Both the position numbers and the translations under genes were made by a program. Below the pieces are notes generated by a model. The model was not told where the DNA came from, made no database searches, and worked only from the letters and a program-made list of their open reading frames with translations. DNA of 37,812 nucleotides from a virus (Duplodnaviria; Heunggongvirae; Uroviricota; Caudoviricetes): IMG/VR virus record IMGVR_UViG_2778261419_000004, positions 1 through 37,812 of that record. One strand, 5' to 3'. This document shows positions 8,473 to 33,899 of the stretch, one piece after another. Positions within the stretch are counted from its first letter, which is position 1. The number at the start of each line of letters is the position of its first letter.

Positions 8473-8580
8473 ATGAAATCAAAAATCAAATCGCTACTGG
8501 TTGCTGGTTATAACCACGGCTGGTTAAGTATTTCGTTTGTCGATTTCTGGTTTAAAAATCTCAATCTGAGGGAATCATGA
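8473..8580 (+). CDS. Possible small ORF (35 aa) coupled to the primase-helicase gene
   Basis: Hand-translated MKSKIKSLLVAGYNHGWLSISFVDFWFKNLNLRES; its stop overlaps the ATG at 8577 (ATGA). Could be spurious. Confidence 0.2.
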   Translation: MKSKIKSLLVAGYNHGWLSISFVDFWFKNLNLRES

Positions 8581-10457
8581 CGCCAAGTGAACTTAGCGAC
8601 CTGCTTTGGGCGCAGGTTGACAGGGTGGCTCCGCACCTGTTGCCAAACGGCAAGAAAGAGGGGCATGAGTGGGTTGCCGGTAACGTCAATGGTGACAAGG
8701 GAAACAGCCTTAAGGTCAACCTTAGCGGCAAGAAAAAATGGGCTGATTTCGCTGAGGGAGACGGCGGTGACATGCTTGATTTGTGGATGGCATGTCGTGG
8801 AATTAACCTGCATCAGGCTATGCAGGAAGCGAAAGCATTTCTCGGTATCAAGGATGACGATCACCATTTCGATGCCAAACGTGAGAAAAAATTCTCCAGA
8901 CCTGATCGCAAGAAAATCGCCCGCTACGTTACCAGAACAGAATCCCATCTTGAGTACCTGCAATCGCGTGGCATATCGCCAGAAGTCGTAAAGCGCTACG
9001 AGGTTGTCAGCGGCAAGGTGTGGAATGGAGAACGAGAACTTGATGCACTGGTGCTTCCGTACAAACGCGATGGTGAGTTGTTGCAGGTCAAGCGAATCAG
9101 CACTGAGCGCCCGGACGGGAAGAAAGTCATTATGGCAGAAGGTGATTGCGAACCTTGTCTGTTCGGATGGCAGGCTCTGGACGCTGGCGTGAGGGCGGTT
9201 GTACTTTGCGAAGGCGAAATTGATTGTATGAGCTATGCGCAATACGGCATCTCGGCGTTATCCGTGCCGTTTGGTGGAGGGAAAGGCGCTAAGCAACAGT
9301 GGATTGAGTTTGAGTACCACAACCTCGACAGGTTTGAGGAAATATTCATCTCGATGGACGTTGATGATGTTGGTCGTGAAGCCGCAAGGGAAATCGCAAG
9401 CCGACTCGGTGAACATCGTTGCCGTCTTGTTACTCTGCCGTACAAAGACATCAACGAATGCCTGATGAACGGTGTTACCGAGGATGAAATCTGGCAGTAC
9501 ATCGGCACGGCATCCTACTTTGATCCTGAAGAACTCTACAGCGCGCGAGAGTTTTACCAGGACACTATCAACGCTTTCTACGGCAAGCAGCAGTATCTGT
9601 TTAATCCACCGTGGGAATCTCTGGCAGATAAATTCCAGTTTCGTGAGGCCGAGTTGACGCTGGTCAATGGTGTGAACGGTCACGGAAAAACGGAGGTTGT
9701 CGGGCATATGGCACTTGAGGCAATGCGTCAGGGTGTGAAGACGTGCATCGCGTCACTTGAGCTGAAGCCTGGTATTCTCCTTAAGCGCCTTACCCGTCAG
9801 GCGACGTGCTGCAAGATGCCGCCAGTGCTGGAAATTGACTCTGCATTTAAATTTTATGACGAAAGACTTTGGGTGTTTGGCCTGACTGGAACGGCGAAAG
9901 CCGACAGGCTGATCGAAATATTCGACTACGCTCGCCGCCGATACGGCATCCAGTTATTCATCATCGACAGCCTGATGAAATGCGGCATAGGTGACGATGA
10001 CTATAACGGGCAGAAAGCATTTGTTGACTCGATTTGTGACTTCAAAAACAAAACAAACTCCCACGTCATTCTCGTTACTCACTCCAGAAAAGGAGACAGC
10101 GAAGAAAAACCAACCGGGAAAATGGACGTAAAAGGCTCTGGAGCGATAACAGACCTGACAGACAACCTTTTCATCATCTGGCGTAACAAGGCTCGCGAGA
10201 GAGCGTTACAGAGAGTTCAGAGTGGTGAAAAAATGTCAGAGAAGGACGAACAGCTACTGGCATCTCCGGCATCTGTTTTGATGCTTGAAAAACAACGTAA
10301 CGGCGAAGGTTGGGAAGGTGGTGTCCCGTTGTTCCTTGACGAGCAATCGCACCAGTTCCTGCAACTTGAATCAGGATCGCCTTATAGCTACATCGCCAAT
10401 ATGCCGAAATCGGAATATGACGAGGCGTGGCGACAGGAAAACGTGACGGAGTATTAA
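8577..10457 (+). CDS. Bifunctional DNA primase-helicase (TOPRIM plus DnaB-like ATPase)
   Basis: 626 aa; TOPRIM-like VLCEGEIDCMSYAQYG and SMDVDDVGREAAREIA; Walker A GVNGHGKTEV and Walker B LFIIDSL in the C-terminal half. Confidence 0.85.
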   Translation: MTPSELSDLLWAQVDRVAPHLLPNGKKEGHEWVAGNVNGDKGNSLKVNLSGKKKWADFAEGDGGDMLDLWMACRGINLHQAMQEAKAFLGIKDDDHHFDAKREKKFSRPDRKKIARYVTRTESHLEYLQSRGISPEVVKRYEVVSGKVWNGERELDALVLPYKRDGELLQVKRISTERPDGKKVIMAEGDCEPCLFGWQALDAGVRAVVLCEGEIDCMSYAQYGISALSVPFGGGKGAKQQWIEFEYHNLDRFEEIFISMDVDDVGREAAREIASRLGEHRCRLVTLPYKDINECLMNGVTEDEIWQYIGTASYFDPEELYSAREFYQDTINAFYGKQQYLFNPPWESLADKFQFREAELTLVNGVNGHGKTEVVGHMALEAMRQGVKTCIASLELKPGILLKRLTRQATCCKMPPVLEIDSAFKFYDERLWVFGLTGTAKADRLIEIFDYARRRYGIQLFIIDSLMKCGIGDDDYNGQKAFVDSICDFKNKTNSHVILVTHSRKGDSEEKPTGKMDVKGSGAITDLTDNLFIIWRNKARERALQRVQSGEKMSEKDEQLLASPASVLMLEKQRNGEGWEGGVPLFLDEQSHQFLQLESGSPYSYIANMPKSEYDEAWRQENVTEY

Positions 10458-10486: not shown

Positions 10487-10515
10487 AGGCCTGCTGGTAA
10501 TCGCAGGCCTTTTTA
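10487..10515 (+). terminator. Rho-independent terminator (tR2-like, before the nin region)
   Basis: AGGCCTGC-TGGTAATC-GCAGGCCT (8-bp stem) followed by TTTTATTT. Confidence 0.7.
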
Positions 10516-10534
10516 TTTGGGGGAGAGGGAAGTC

Positions 10535-11122
10535 ATGAAAAAACTAACCTTTGAAATTCGATCTCCAGCACATCAGCAAAACGCTATTCACGCAGTACAG
10601 CAAATCCTTCCAGACCCAACCAAACCAATCAATCAAATAACTCAGCAGAGACTTAAAGAAGTCCTTCTCTACGATGAGTTAACAGGGAAATTCACATGGA
10701 AAGTAAAGAAATGCCAGAGAATGAATGCTGGGGATATCGCAGGGCATAAGAGTAGCGAAGGCTACTGGGTAATAAAAGTCGATGGAAAACTTTATAAGGC
10801 ACACAGGCTGGCGTGGCTCTATATGAATGGCAGTCTACCAAAAAGTGATATCGACCACATAAATCTCGTTAGGGATGACAATCGTATAGCAAATCTTAGA
10901 TTGGCAACTCGATCTCAAAACATCCAAAACGTAAACAAAAAGGCAAATAACAAATCAGGATATAAAGGCGTTTCATGGGATAAGAAATCAAGAAAATGGA
11001 GGGCGCAAATCGTAATCAACAAGAGGAAAGTTAATCTTGGGTTTTACGATGACCCAAAGGAAGCTCATAAAGTATATGCAAATAAAGCGGATGAATGTTT
11101 CGGCGAATTTGCGAGGTATTAA
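10535..11122 (+). CDS. HNH homing endonuclease with AP2 domain, N-terminally fused to a NinB-like segment
   Basis: First 32 aa MKKLTFEIRSPAHQQNAIHAVQQILPDPTKPI match the lambda NinB N-terminus as recalled; then HNH motif DHINLVRDDNRIANLRLATRSQN and AP2-like YKGVSWDKKSRKWRAQI...GFYDDPKEAHKVY. Track start 10517 is TTG. Confidence 0.8.
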   Translation: MKKLTFEIRSPAHQQNAIHAVQQILPDPTKPINQITQQRLKEVLLYDELTGKFTWKVKKCQRMNAGDIAGHKSSEGYWVIKVDGKLYKAHRLAWLYMNGSLPKSDIDHINLVRDDNRIANLRLATRSQNIQNVNKKANNKSGYKGVSWDKKSRKWRAQIVINKRKVNLGFYDDPKEAHKVYANKADECFGEFARY

Positions 11123-11123
11123 A

Positions 11124-11552
11124 ATGAAATGTGTCAAATATCACCTTACTAATGAATCTATAAGATATAACGCCATTCAGTATCTTAGGACATGCGATTT
11201 AGACATCATTGTCGAGTTTAAGCAGCGCAACCGCAGCTTAGACCAGAATCGAAAGCTTTGGGCTTGCCTTGGTGACGTCTCTCGTCAGGTTGAATGGCAT
11301 GGTCGCTGGCTGGATGCAGAAAGCTGGAAGTGTGTGTTTACCGCAGCATTAAAGCAGCAGGATGTTGTTCCTAACCTTGCCGGGAATGGCTTTGTGGTAA
11401 TAGGCCAGTCAACCAGCAGGATGCGTGTAAGCGAATTTGCGGAGCTATTAGAGCTTATACAGGCATTCGGTACAGAGCGTGGCGTTAAGTGGTCAGACGA
11501 AGCGCGACTGGCTCTGGAGTGGAAAGCGCGATGGGGAGACCGGGCAGCATGA
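11124..11552 (+). CDS. ninB: NinB (Orf-family recombination mediator)
   Basis: 142 aa from the ATG at 11124 (AGGTAT motif upstream); [37 protein letters not shown]...[11 protein letters not shown] matches lambda NinB as recalled. Confidence 0.85.
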
Positions 11553-11722
11553 TGCGATGTTATCGGTGCGGTGAATGCAAAGAAGATAACCGCTTCCGAC
11601 CAAATCAACCTTACTGGAATCGATGGTGTCTCCGGTGTGAAAGAACACCAACAGGGGTGTTACCACTACCGCAGGAAAAGGAGGACGTGTGGCGAGACAG
11701 CGACGAAGTATCACCGACATAA
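11549..11722 (+). CDS. ninD: NinD-like small zinc-finger protein
   Basis: 57 aa [32 protein letters not shown]... with CxxC...CxxC; start overlaps the ninB stop. Confidence 0.55.
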
Positions 11723-11865
11723 TCTGTGAAAACTGCAAATACCTTCCAACGAAACGCTCCAGAAATAAACGCAAGCCAATCCCAAAAGAATCTGACGTAA
11801 AAACCTTCAATTACACGGCTCACCTGTGGGATATCCGGTGGCTAAGACATCGTGCGAGGAAATGA
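11689..11865 (+). CDS. ninE: NinE-like protein
   Basis: Hand-translated from a GTG start after AAGGAGGA: [57 protein letters not shown]. Not in the track. Confidence 0.5.
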
Positions 11866-12227
11866 CAATGGATTATTCACAGTTAAGTGATTTTGAAATT
11901 AACGTGGCGGTATTCGAAGCCATTCATAACGGATCACCGGATTACAAAGAAGGTGAGAATGGCGATATGGTGTTTGTCTCATTTGAGGGAGACATTGTAA
12001 ACGGAGACGCAGTTGAAGTAGAAGTTGAGCGCGGATCCTTTAACCCATGCGCAAACCCAGCAGACGCATGGCCGATTATTGAAAAATACAGGATTAGCAT
12101 TATCAATCTCGATGAAGACGAGTGGGGTGCACGCGGTGTGGCCTACTGTAAATCTAAGCGAGCTATACATGAAAATCCCCTCCGCGCCGCCATGATTGTC
12201 TTTCTCATGATGCAGAGAATCCAATAA
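11862..12227 (+). CDS. Hypothetical nin-region protein
   Basis: Track ORF from a GTG at 11826; the ATG at 11862 overlaps the ninE stop (ATGA). Acidic; function unknown. Confidence 0.5.
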
Positions 12228-12406
12228 TGCTTAGCCCATCCCAATCCCTTCAATACCAGAAAGAAAGCGTCGAGCGGGCTTTAACGTGCGCTAACTGCGG
12301 TCAGAAGCTGCATGTGCTGGAAGTTCATGTGTGTGAGCACTGCTGTGCAGAACTGATGAGCGATCCGAATAGCTCAATGTACGAGGAAGAAGACGATGGT
12401 GATTAG
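12227..12406 (+). CDS. ninF: NinF-like small Cys-rich protein
   Basis: Hand-translated 59 aa [59 protein letters not shown]; TAATG overlap with the previous gene. Not in the track. Confidence 0.55.
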   Translation: MLSPSQSLQYQKESVERALTCANCGQKLHVLEVHVCEHCCAELMSDPNSSMYEEEDDGD

Positions 12407-12788
12407 CCGATACGGAAAAATAACGTTTAAACATTTTCAAGACAATCCAACATGGGCTGCTGCGGCTGGATATGACTTTAATTATTTTGATTGTCTGTCA
12501 GTCGCATGTATTGCAACTACCAATGTTGCTAACAACATAATCGATGAATTCTTGGATTTTCCAGACTATCAGGTCAGAGAGTTGCCTGCATTTTTTGTGA
12601 AAGTATCTGTTGCTACAGCTCTGTTATTTATTTTGTTATTCGCATATCCATTGCTTGCCGTATTTGTTTATGTGAGATGCAAGCACTCACAAAATGAATA
12701 CAGCGGAGAGCATACCGATATTACCAGCCAAAATATGCGAGTGTGGTTGAGGAGATGCCAAGAGAAATGGGGGAGAAGTCATGGCTAA
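12396..12788 (+). CDS. Hypothetical protein with one predicted transmembrane helix (AT-rich insert)
   Basis: 130-aa track ORF; hydrophobic VSVATALLFILLFAYPLLAVFVYV; noticeably AT-rich relative to neighbours; start overlaps the ninF end. Confidence 0.45.
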   Translation: MVISRYGKITFKHFQDNPTWAAAAGYDFNYFDCLSVACIATTNVANNIIDEFLDFPDYQVRELPAFFVKVSVATALLFILLFAYPLLAVFVYVRCKHSQNEYSGEHTDITSQNMRVWLRRCQEKWGRSHG

Positions 12789-13071
12789 CCTACGCAAAGA
12801 AGCGCGCGGAAGAGAATGCCAGGTACGTATTTACGGCATATGCAATGGAAATCCTGAAACTACAGTTCTGGCACATTACCGGATGGCTGGAATTTGCGGA
12901 ACGGGAATGAAACCTGACGACCTGATCGGCGCATGGGCTTGTAGTGACTGCCACGCGGAGATCGACCGACGCACAAGGATTCTCGACAACAAAGACGCCA
13001 GACTTTACCACCTCGAAGGCGTGATCAGGACGCAGGCGATACTGCTGAAGGAGGGGAAGATTAAGTCATGA
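12781..13071 (+). CDS. ybcO: YbcO-like protein (DUF1364, putative nuclease)
   Basis: 96 aa MANLRKEARGRECQVRIYGICNGNPETTVLAHYR...CSDCHAEIDRR resembles E. coli DLP12 YbcO (recalled); sits upstream of rusA as in DLP12. Confidence 0.75.
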   Translation: MANLRKEARGRECQVRIYGICNGNPETTVLAHYRMAGICGTGMKPDDLIGAWACSDCHAEIDRRTRILDNKDARLYHLEGVIRTQAILLKEGKIKS

Positions 13072-13430
13072 ACGAATATCAGTTTGTGCTTCCATACCCG
13101 CCGTCGGTGAACACCTACTGGCGAAGACGGGGAAGCCAATACTACATCAGCGATAAAGGCCAGAAATACCGAAAAGACGTTCAGCAAATCATCCGCCAAC
13201 TTAAGTTAGACATTTTCACCAAATCACGACTCCGCATCAAAGTCATCGCAGACGTTCCAGACTCCCGCCGCCGCGACCTCGACAACATCCTGAAAGGTTT
13301 ACTCGACTCCCTTATCCACGCCGGATTTGCGGAAGACGACGAGCAATTCGATGACATTCGCGTAATTCGTGGTGTGAAAGTACCAGGCGGACGGCTTGGA
13401 ATAAAAATCACCGAACTGGAGAACGCATGA
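13068..13430 (+). CDS. rusA: RusA Holliday-junction resolvase
   Basis: 120 aa; LPYPPSVNTYWRRRG and DVPDSRRRDLDNILKGLLDSLIHAGF...GGRLGIKITEL match the RusA family. Confidence 0.9.
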   Translation: MNEYQFVLPYPPSVNTYWRRRGSQYYISDKGQKYRKDVQQIIRQLKLDIFTKSRLRIKVIADVPDSRRRDLDNILKGLLDSLIHAGFAEDDEQFDDIRVIRGVKVPGGRLGIKITELENA

Positions 13431-13615
13431 ACGCCACAATTCAAACGATACCAGAGCTTCTTATCCAGACACGAGGCAATCAGACCGAAGTGGCGAGGAT
13501 GCTTTCCTGCGCAAGAGGAACAGTGCTCAAGTACAACCGAGACAGCAAAGGCGAGCGTCACGTAATAGTTAACGGCGTCCTGATGGTCAAACAAGGCAAG
13601 AGGGGAAGACGATGA
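13427..13615 (+). CDS. ninH: NinH-like DNA-binding protein
   Basis: 62 aa; TIPELLIQTRGNQTEVARMLSCARGTVLKYNRDSKGERHVIVNGVLMV resembles lambda NinH (recalled). Confidence 0.7.
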   Translation: MNATIQTIPELLIQTRGNQTEVARMLSCARGTVLKYNRDSKGERHVIVNGVLMVKQGKRGRR

Positions 13616-14130
13616 GCATAAGAGAACTAAACCTCACCAAAGAGCAGCACGAGTGGCTGAATGGCTGGCTTGAACTGTGGGGCGCATGGGTTTATTCAGG
13701 TCGTCTGGAAAAGCGCATGAGCAGCGTAATAGCGAAGTTCATGGAGAGCGTAGAGCCGGGAAGAATTATGACAAGGCCAATGTGTAATGATGATGATGGA
13801 ATGTTGATTTCTCAGGTCGTTGATTCCGTCATGTACATTGACAAGAAAGCCTTTGGCATCCTCCTCAGCTACTACGCTCATGGTTCATCTAAGCGAGCAA
13901 TTGCATCCTACTATCACGCGACTGCAAAGCCACGCAAGATGTGTGGACGTGGTGGCGAGGGATGGAGAAAACCTTCACTGGCAACCTGTAGAAACGAAAT
14001 TGACGACATCCTGAAAGCGTCATTATTTGTTTTATACCAGCCAATGCAAAATGCTTTCAAAATGCGTAAACGTGTTGAGAAAGTTAAGCATGTTGCTGTT
14101 AAAAACCTTGACATGCAATTATCCATTTAG
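13612..14130 (+). CDS. Q: Late-gene antiterminator Q (phage 82/QuuD-like type, not lambda-Q type)
   Basis: 172 aa; last gene before pR' and the lysis genes; LELWGAWVYSG resembles the LERWGAW motif recalled from QuuD-type Q proteins. Confidence 0.7.
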   Translation: MSIRELNLTKEQHEWLNGWLELWGAWVYSGRLEKRMSSVIAKFMESVEPGRIMTRPMCNDDDGMLISQVVDSVMYIDKKAFGILLSYYAHGSSKRAIASYYHATAKPRKMCGRGGEGWRKPSLATCRNEIDDILKASLFVLYQPMQNAFKMRKRVEKVKHVAVKNLDMQLSI

Positions 14131-14726: not shown

Positions 14727-15050
14727 ATGAAGATGCCAGAAAAACATGACCTGTTAGCCGCCATTCTCGCGGCAAAGGAACAAGGCATCGGGGCAATCCT
14801 TGCGTTTGCAATGGCGTACCTTCGCGGCAGATATAATGGCGGTGCGTTTACAAAAACAGTAATCGACGCAACGATGTGCGCCATTATCGCCTGGTTCATT
14901 CGTGATCTTCTCGACCTCGCCGGACTAAGTAGCAATCTCGCTTATATAACGAGCGTGTTCATCGGCTACATCGGTACTGACTCGATTGGTTCGCTTATCA
15001 AACGCTTCGCTGCTAAAAAAGCCGGAGTAGAAGATGGTGGAAATCAATAA
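14727..15050 (+). CDS. S: Holin S (class I, dual-start MKM)
   Basis: 107 aa [44 protein letters not shown]... near-identical to lambda S as recalled. Confidence 0.95.
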
Positions 15051-15510
15051 TCAACGTAAGGCGTTCCTCGATATGCTGGCGTGGTCAGAGGGAACAGATA
15101 ACGGACGTCAGAAAACCAGAAATCATGGTTATGACGTCATTGTAGGTGGTGAGCTATTCACTGATTACTCCGATCACCCTCGCAAACTTGTCACGCTAAA
15201 CCCCAAACTCAAATCAACAGCAGCCGGACGTTACCAGCTTCTTTCACGTTGGTGGGATGCATACCGTAAGCAGCTTGGCCTGAAAGACTTCTCTCCGAAA
15301 AGCCAGGACGCTGTGGCATTGCAACAGATTAAAGAGCGTGGCGCTTTGCCGATGATTGATCGCGGTGATATTCGTCAGGCAATCGACCGTTGCAGCAATA
15401 TCTGGGCTTCACTGCCGGGCGCTGGTTATGGTCAGTTCGAGCATAAGGCTGACAGCCTGATTGCAAAATTCAAAGAAGCTGGCGGAACGGTCAGAGAGAT
15501 TGAGGTATGA
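15034..15510 (+). CDS. R: Endolysin R (lytic transglycosylase)
   Basis: 158 aa [45 protein letters not shown]... near-identical to lambda R as recalled. Confidence 0.95.
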
Positions 15511-15974
15511 GCAGAGTAACCGCGATTATCTCCGCTCTGGTTATCTGCATCATCGTCTGCCTGTCATGGGCTGTTAATCATTACCGTGATAACGCCATCG
15601 CCTACAAAGAACAGCGTGATAAAAAAGTCAGTGAGCTGAAGCAGGCGACCGCCACCATTACTGACATGCAGCAGCGCCAGCGTTCTGCTGATGCACTCGA
15701 TGCTAAATACACGAAGGAGTTAGCTGATGCGAAAGCTGAAAATGATGCTCTTCGGCGCAAGCTTGATAATGGCGGCAGGGTGCTCGTCAAAGGAAAATGC
15801 CCTGTGCCATCCTCAGCCGAAACCTCCGGCGCCTCCGGCATGGGCAATGATGCCACCGTCGAACTCTCTCCAGTTGCTGGACGAAACGTTCTCAGTATCA
15901 GATCTGGAATCATCAGCGACCAAACATCACTGAGAACGCTTCAGGAATACATCAACACGCAGTGCCTGAAATGA
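15507..15974 (+). CDS. Rz: Rz i-spanin
   Basis: 155 aa; N-terminal [31 protein letters not shown] matches lambda Rz; C-terminal half diverges. Confidence 0.9.
15727..15933 (+). CDS. Rz1: Rz1 o-spanin lipoprotein (embedded in Rz, +1 frame)
   Basis: 68 aa [21 protein letters not shown]... with lipobox AAGC and a Pro-rich segment, nested in Rz as in lambda. Confidence 0.75.
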
Positions 15975-33831: not shown

Positions 33832-33899
33832 AGTTGAAGCCCCAACTGCGGGAACAGTCAGGGCTTCGGTTGTCAGTAAATCCGTGGAGAAAAACCAAC

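Follow-up and report, generated by a model that had tools for sequence, protein, structure and literature searches.

The window analysed here, that is, the whole stretch of 37,812 nucleotides (nt) given by positions 1 to 37,812 of the IMG/VR record IMGVR_UViG_2778261419_000004 (Caudoviricetes), encompasses a lambdoid nin region in which an open reading frame (ORF) at 12396..12788, on the plus strand and starting with ATG, encodes a protein of 130 amino acids (aa). The coding sequence is called from the ORF list, a match to the family phrog_2638, a frame that is kept in relatives and the ratio of nonsynonymous to synonymous substitution rates (dN/dS). The first-pass annotation placed this ORF between NinF-like and YbcO-like genes and had it overlap both, and this arrangement is borne out. 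The upstream neighbour (12227-12406, plus strand) matches Pfam NinF (E-value, E, 1.9e-12) and the downstream neighbour (12781-13071, plus strand) matches Pfam YbcO (DUF1364, a putative nuclease; E 1.2e-43). According to the ORF coordinates, the ORF start overlaps the ninF stop by 11 nt (12396..12406, plus strand), which we read as probable translational coupling, and the ORF stop overlaps the ybcO start by 8 nt (12781..12788, plus strand), the latter overlap, ATGGCTAA, being seen also in the junction alignment. The 3' end of ninF carries a Shine-Dalgarno (SD)-like GAGGAAG (12383..12389, plus strand), with 9 nt from GAGG to the ATG. The encoded protein is identical to RefSeq WP_000237093.1 of Escherichia coli E2348/69, where the DNA of the ORF is 100% identical and is annotated as a hypothetical protein.

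The AT-rich composition claimed in the first-pass annotation is real as well. The ORF has 39.4% GC (36.6% at third codon positions, GC3) vs 50% in ninF (GC3 55%) and 52% in ybcO (GC3 56%), and its GC content lies at the 6.5th percentile among all 393-nt windows of the whole sequence. The ORF is thus clearly AT-richer than its flanks but is not an extreme outlier, given that the HNH endonuclease gene at 10517-11122 is equally low.

Judging by its conservation, the ORF is a genuine gene under purifying selection. Homologues were collected from complete E. coli genomes (41 of 5426), GenBank phages (16 of 50,697 records), GTDB genomes (7 loci) and IMG/VR (135 matches, of which 80 were kept). The reading frame is open in nearly all of the 62 distinct nucleotide sequences, the products of which are 31-100% identical to the 130-aa protein; the exceptions are three truncated alleles, with a stop after codon 111 (L034, L035) or codon 120 (L039), and two IMG/VR loci in which the frame is broken as extracted (L063, L065). 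These truncated or frame-disrupted copies are some of the prophage copies in IMG/VR contigs. The median Nei-Gojobori (NG86) dN/dS over the 58 pairs with 0.15 < dS < 1.5 is 0.22, many pairs falling at 0.03-0.15, and between clades the proportion of synonymous differences (pS) is about 0.8, that is, saturated, with a proportion of nonsynonymous differences (pN) of 0.3-0.45. ORF length by itself is not decisive at such GC content; conservation is, and the keeping of the frame in relatives, which had been singled out beforehand as the test of this gene, leaves it standing.

The most conserved part of the protein, delineated in two alignments, is the motif I-T-F-K-H-F-x-D-x-P-x-W-A-A-A-A-G-Y-D-F-N-x-x-D-C-x-S at codons 9-35 (12420..12500, plus strand), which is almost invariant among the homologues in the form T-x-x-H-F-x-D-x-P-x-W-A-A-A-A-G-Y-D-F-N-x-x-D-C-x-S. 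At its invariant Ala and Gly positions, all four codons occur, and because synonymous codons vary at such positions, the constraint appears to be on the protein rather than on DNA or RNA. A DNA or RNA element behind the WAAAAGYDFN stretch was considered and ruled out by this free synonymous variation together with an empty Rfam scan of the stretch.

The protein belongs to PHROG 2638, with a full-length match (E 6.1e-55, residues 8-127 vs positions 1-120 of the 120-position profile), and 38 of 38 diverse relatives match this PHROG and no other. Membership is established, and the family is one already catalogued, in a region long known as mosaic and dispensable. A profile search of 1.84 billion representative proteins retrieved only 45 clusters, formed at 50% identity, at E <= 1e-3, nearly all consisting of proteins of about 100-135 aa, the few weak matches being fragments or unrelated long proteins. 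All hosts seen belong to the Enterobacterales (Escherichia, Salmonella, Klebsiella, Buttiauxella, Dryocola, Pseudocitrobacter, Yersinia, Xenorhabdus, Morganella and Proteus). The family is annotated as 'unknown function' in PHROGs, the related RefSeq entries (WP_000237093.1 and WP_000237094.1) are 'hypothetical protein', and with PHROG 2638 as the sole family match and nearly all database names 'hypothetical' or 'uncharacterised', the earlier description of the ORF as lacking a functional annotation holds. The two exceptions, both about 117-119 aa, are evident annotation errors: 'conotoxin' for ORF53 of Yersinia phage P840 (L008, 3498-3857) and 'ribonucleotide reductase large subunit' for QHJ72807.1 of Proteus phage 2207-N35. 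Many homologues start with two adjacent Met codons (MM...; L009, L016, L040, L067-L097, P0013, P0018 and P0023), which may be chance; tandem starts give two products in some phage membrane proteins.

Scans of the 130-aa protein yielded nothing in Pfam at E <= 0.1, no match to the PADLOC-DB defence models even at E <= 10 and, in NCBIfam, only a sub-threshold ATP synthase c match (15.5 bits vs a cutoff of 120) that reflects generic transmembrane (TM) similarity. When the 38 diverse relatives were scanned one by one against Pfam, only two isolated chance-level TM matches appeared, and the family profile found nothing significant among the PDB sequences (best E 1.1). A literature search on the accessions or the PHROG identifier found no paper, and one on nin region plus transmembrane found nothing relevant.

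Comparison with related nin regions indicates that the gene is a cassette. The first-pass annotation took it for an acquired insert, lambda and DLP12 having no such gene at this position; indeed, in lambda NinF is followed directly by NinG, and DLP12 has ninE, ybcO and rusA. Elsewhere, the corresponding slot is vacant in many prophages, and in other E. coli prophages it can also be taken up by genes unrelated to this one. In blastn, the match to related nin regions breaks off at 12398-12405 on the left and restarts at 12781 on the right, so that blastn breakpoints and the junction alignment with empty-slot and other-cassette prophages delimit 381 bp of cassette-specific DNA (12400..12780, plus strand). 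The tetranucleotide ATGG is found at both cassette ends (12396-12399 and 12781-12784). The ninF 3' end, ...GAGGAAGAAGACGATG(G), is common to all versions and carries both the SD-like GAGGAAG and the ATG of the next gene; in cassette-less prophages, this same ATG starts NinG (ATGGCTAA...), and on the downstream side, ATGGCTAA holds both the stop of the ORF and the start of ybcO. The breakpoints, the ATGG-bounded junctions, the alternative slot occupants and the deviating GC3 all uphold the reading of an acquired insert, and by these features the gene is a precise single-gene, translationally coupled, in-operon mosaic module.

The slot after ninF is found in five states: empty (L007), or occupied by a 70-aa ORF (L004), an 89-aa ORF (L006), a KilAC antirepressor (L005) or the PHROG 2638 gene. 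The Roi-like antirepressor with the KilAC domain, the 70-aa ORF (WP_001286917.1) and the 89-aa ORF (WP_001279421.1) share the position, the ATG and the junction at the ybcO ATG with the gene studied here, but their sequences are unrelated to the 130-aa protein. The slot is a hot spot of recombination, for which at least five states can be told apart, and the SD and ATG in the ninF 3' end are common to all; the states that precede ybcO share the right junction at the ybcO ATG, whereby translational coupling is preserved. In one locus (L003), the PHROG 2638 gene occupies the slot and is followed by NinG in place of YbcO, and in four others (L048-L051), it is located before NinF or after NinE/NinX. 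Across the 63 homologue loci, most homologues overlap or abut same-strand neighbours, the upstream gene being overlapped in 34 and the downstream gene in 41, and an SD-like core is present in 46. The E. coli/Klebsiella allele has a GC3 of about 0.37 vs about 0.50 in its flanks, whereas alleles of other clades match their own flanks; this mismatch, confined to the one allele, supports its probable acquisition, fairly recently, from a lower-GC phage background.

Beyond the lambdoid nin regions, in which the gene sits among NinB/E/X/F/G, YbcO and RusA, homologues occur in several unrelated settings. The P1-like plasmid prophages (SJ46 and RCS47, along with many IMG/VR contigs) carry the gene within a series of small genes of unknown function. 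Its immediate neighbours are uncharacterised ORFs in Yersinia phage P840, where an exonuclease and a methylase are encoded close by, and an exonuclease gene and a nuclease gene in Proteus Gorganvirus phages, where a helicase and a primase are encoded nearby. The homologue in Proteus phage vB_PmiS_PM-CJR is gp081, in the early replication region; in the paper that describes it, this phage is reported to be free of lysogeny genes and is classed as lytic (PMC8539402). The neighbours in the P1-like, Yersinia and Proteus contexts are unannotated except for DUF551. A conserved partner gene was sought by clustering the neighbours across the 63 loci and rejected, none being constant, and since no neighbour is constant across contexts, the protein probably acts alone. 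The identical gene of E. coli E2348/69 (locus E2348C_RS03645) lies in a rearranged nin region (L002; NC_011601.1, 735071-737676) in which NinF is encoded twice, the HNH gene and the antiterminator are truncated and the RusA gene is a pseudogene interrupted by a stop codon; the next gene, on the opposite strand, is lpxR (lipid A deacylase).

In the window, the surrounding operon can be followed, mostly by Pfam matches, from the primase-helicase gene (8577-10457) to the lysis genes. Directly after the primase-helicase gene, there is a terminator-like hairpin (10487-10510, plus strand; a stem of 8 bp, 6 of them GC, followed by a T-run), located where a tR2-type terminator would be expected, at the entry of the nin region. 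The genes that follow are NinB (ORF 11037-11552, the true start probably near 11112), NinD (ORF 11489-11722, the Pfam match covering residues 21-77), NinE (11689-11865), NinX (11826-12227) and NinF, and, on the other side of the cassette and YbcO, RusA (13068-13430), NinH (13427-13615) and Q (13612-14130). The 130-aa ORF matches none of the nin-region Pfam models (NinB/D/E/F/G/H/X, YbcO, RusA), whereas its neighbours match theirs, and no promoter-like (sigma-70) or intrinsic terminator sites were found flanking 12396-12788 on the plus strand. The HNH endonuclease ORF (10517-11122, plus strand; HNH_3 and AP2 domains, 201 aa, TTG start), with a GC content of ~40% (locally 35-39%), lies between the hairpin and NinB and has an overlap with the start of NinB; this ORF, too, has the look of an acquired module, similar to a homing endonuclease, and its counterpart in E. 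coli E2348/69 is a truncated pseudogene. The lysis cassette (14727-15974) consists of a holin gene (14727-15050, Phage_holin_3_1), an ORF in the endolysin position (15034-15510) and Rz (15507-15974); the endolysin-position ORF, 158 aa on the plus strand between holin and Rz, is without a Pfam match at E <= 0.001. Farther along, at 33832-33899 on the minus strand, there is a match to the sar RNA (Rfam RF00262, 95.6 bits, E 1.8e-19), the antisense RNA that regulates ant in immI regions of the P22 type, which points to a prophage with a P22-like second immunity region, in agreement with the P22-like late genes downstream.

The single strongly hydrophobic helix noticed in the first-pass annotation is confirmed as the only such segment: averaged over 19 residues, the Kyte-Doolittle hydropathy is higher than 1.6 wherever the averaging begins at residues 62-78 and has its maximum, 2.61, at residues 75-93, which is hydrophobic enough to span the membrane, so that the protein is predicted to be membrane-anchored, as had been claimed. 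The next-best segment reaches 1.38 in the 130-aa protein and has a family mean of 1.0, with charges in many members. An AlphaFold2 model built on a 38-sequence alignment (mean predicted local distance difference test score, pLDDT, 92.3; predicted template modelling score, pTM, 0.76; five concordant models, all with pLDDT >= 90) consists of a beta-hairpin (residues 2-9), short helices (11-23), a helix at 30-53, a 42-residue helix at 60-101 and a helix at 108-129. The hydrophobic stretch lies inside the helix 60-101, and the Kyte-Doolittle profile, the model and the family alignment together place the predicted TM helix at codons 63-93 (12582..12674, plus strand), with the aromatic-Pro motif Y84-P85 and with Y92. 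A two-pass hairpin formed with helix 30-53 was ruled out by the presence of Arg, Asp and His there in many relatives; because this helix is amphipathic, often charged and of a mean hydropathy of 1.0, we read the protein as single-pass.

The residues conserved across the family are F14, P18, A21, G25, Y26, D32 and C33 in the N-terminal part, a V-R-E-L-P element ahead of the membrane helix and, inside this helix, the motif [YWF]-P-x-x-F-W..G...Y. The C-terminal tail (codons 94-130; 12675..12785, plus strand), which encompasses a juxtamembrane R-C-K and the amphipathic helix 108-129, is basic, poorly conserved across the wider family and, by charge bias, predicted to be cytoplasmic; its helix is seen in the models. 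In the family mean, the 15-residue flanks of the helix contain 1.45 K/R on the N-terminal side and 3.55 on the C-terminal side, and the ratio of K/R to D/E is 4.7 to 7.5 in the N-terminal region and 9.0 to 3.8 in the C-terminal region. These positive-inside charge statistics favour a topology with a cytoplasmic C-terminus and a periplasmic location of the conserved N-terminal domain. A Foldseek search with the better model found nothing closer in the PDB than E 1.7 and a TM-score <= 0.41; among the BFVD structures, Foldseek brought up a single unnamed viral protein of 109 aa (E 3e-3), which is probably a remote member of the family, and otherwise nothing.

Taken together, these observations suggest that the ORF may be a functional single-gene accessory module in the delayed-early nin operon of a P22/lambda-like prophage. 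It would share the transcript of the nin genes, being located downstream of the terminator-like hairpin that follows the primase-helicase gene and upstream of the gene for the Q antiterminator; in lambda, transcription of the nin region starts at pR and, through N-type antitermination, continues beyond the nin terminators. Its translation would be coupled to that of ninF via the SD and the ATG that lie within the 3' end of ninF, and the protein would be produced during lytic growth or induction rather than in a quiescent lysogen. Given the position in the nin operon, which argues against expression from a repressed prophage, and the homologue in a reportedly lytic phage, the protein is therefore probably not a lysogenic-conversion factor but one made early in lytic development. 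The product would be a small bitopic protein of the inner membrane, made up of an N-terminal domain of ~60 aa that is acidic and highly conserved (beta-hairpin and three helices), a conserved E-V-R-E-L-P juxtamembrane element, one TM helix with the conserved aromatic-Pro motif and a basic C-terminal amphipathic helix. Acting alone on an envelope component of the infected cell, it could block the DNA entry of a superinfecting phage or otherwise shield or modify the inner membrane, as the early Imm and Sp proteins of T4 do. By this analogy, superinfection exclusion is our best guess for the role, a tentative one that we hold to be more probably wrong than right. The wider proposition, to be taken as a whole and with a similar degree of doubt, is that PHROG 2638 may be a new, structurally unprecedented early phage membrane family engaging a host inner-membrane component, with the conserved, periplasm-facing N-terminal domain and the conserved TM motif serving to keep superinfecting phages out or to neutralise a defence bound to the membrane, and that it might have spread, as a translationally coupled cassette lacking a promoter, through the lambdoid phages, P1-like phages and lytic siphophages of Enterobacterales.

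Several points weigh against this proposal. Temperate phages usually express their exclusion proteins in the prophage state, whereas this operon is silent in lysogens. The truncated copies in three loci (L034, L035 and L039) suggest that the gene is dispensable in the prophage state. Further difficulties concern the topology. In the 130-aa protein itself, the 15-residue helix flanks are balanced, with 2 vs 2 K/R, and because these flanks are neutral, the topology call rests on the whole-region charges and the family average. Moving a 60-residue N-terminal tail across the membrane without a signal peptide is uncommon. AlphaFold, which takes no account of the membrane, packs helices 30-53 and 108-129 along the hydrophobic helix as one compact unit; if the model is right in this respect, such packing would bring the N- and C-terminal parts together and fits poorly with an N-out/C-in arrangement.

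We ranked the alternative explanations by their fit to an acidic external conserved domain, a variable basic tail and early, promoter-less expression. The one that we take most seriously, while considering it unlikely, is a host take-over or toxic membrane effector, the early insertion of which would perturb division, transport, the membrane potential or a membrane protease like FtsH and so favour phage development, as the small early lambda proteins Kil or CIII act on host targets. Its location in an early lytic operon and presence also in an apparently lytic phage agree with such an effector; the conservation of the [YWF]-P-x-x-F-W..G...Y motif beyond mere hydrophobicity suggests a specific helix-helix partner in the membrane, and the truncated prophage alleles would suit counter-selection of a leaky toxic gene. 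There is, however, no similarity to known toxin, Kil or CIII families, and the strong purifying selection on the N-terminal domain, outside the membrane, points to specific binding rather than generic membrane damage. A further alternative is an anti-defence protein, in which the N-terminal domain binds and neutralises a membrane-associated component of host or prophage defence, for example, an abortive-infection effector. Early accessory regions are typical sites of anti-defence genes, the distribution is patchy (as seen among the complete E. coli genomes, 41/5426), and the cassette has moved among unrelated phage types as counter-defence genes often do; against this, there is neither a match to a known anti-defence family nor a consistent defence-related neighbour, and we rate this explanation as more doubtful still than an effector of host take-over.

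Less probable than either is an anchor that would hold complexes for the replication or recombination of phage DNA at the membrane, conceptually similar to p16.7 of phi29, an early protein of about 130 aa with one TM helix that is encoded among replication genes. Genes for replication and recombination are nearby in every context (NinB, NinG, RusA and YbcO in the nin region, those for an exonuclease and a methylase in the Yersinia phage, and those for a helicase, an exonuclease and a primase in the Proteus phage), and the tail predicted to be cytoplasmic is basic. Early accessory genes, however, simply sit among genes of DNA metabolism; the tail is short and, in the wider family, little conserved, and no sequence or fold similarity to p16.7-like proteins is found in the PDB. 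In addition, p16.7 has its TM helix at the N-terminus and binds DNA with its C-terminal domain, whereas in the 130-aa protein, the helix is central and the conserved soluble domain is acidic, with a net charge of about -4, and its predicted location is outside the cytoplasm. An auxiliary regulator of lysis, holin-like or antiholin-like, that tunes lysis timing would account for the small size, the single TM helix and the highly charged C-terminal tail, but these are generic traits of holins and antiholins. The ORF lies outside the lysis cassette, which is located 2 kb downstream and has its own Phage_holin_3_1 gene, it would be expressed before Q-dependent late transcription, and neither Pfam nor PHROGs gives a match to a holin family, so that we regard such a role as quite improbable. 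Finally, the few truncated alleles, and a length that alone is not decisive in AT-rich DNA, might be taken as signs of a spurious or decaying ORF without function; with a frame kept down to 31% identity, a dN/dS of about 0.2, an invariant motif and a confident predicted fold, we give this explanation almost no credence.

The gene is, in one respect, one more uncharacterised accessory gene of a mosaic nin region, ordinary for such phages and unsurprising to a specialist. It is also a compact candidate for testing, being a small stand-alone gene under strong purifying selection with a confident predicted fold that has no structural relative, and it is found in temperate phages as well as apparently lytic ones across several enterobacterial genera, and in a prophage of the enteropathogenic E. 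coli (EPEC) reference strain E2348/69. Its junctions provide a clean example of cassette exchange in lambdoid operons in which coupling is kept, by the shared SD and ATG(G) on the left and by ATGGCTAA on the right. Should the protein prove to be an exclusion or counter-defence factor, it would represent a new family among the genes of phage-phage and phage-host conflict.

Imm and Sp of T4, gp15 of HK97 and SieA of P22 are likewise small phage-encoded inner-membrane proteins. Imm and Sp are made early in lytic infection, and gp15 and SieA are expressed from the prophage, whereas the gene at 12396-12788 is located in the nin operon. No sequence or fold similarity to characterised exclusion proteins (Imm, Sp, SieA, gp15 and Sim) was detected in Pfam, PHROGs or the PDB; given that exclusion proteins form many unrelated families, this missing similarity is compatible with an analogous exclusion function. 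With the classical lambdoid moron, in the sense of Hendrix and Juhala, the gene shares the status of an extra gene of deviating composition, with a GC3 of 0.37 vs 0.50-0.57 in the flanking genes. A classical moron, however, has its own promoter and terminator, whereas this gene is without both and overlaps its neighbours at its ends. It is an in-operon mosaic module and not a classical, autonomously expressed moron.

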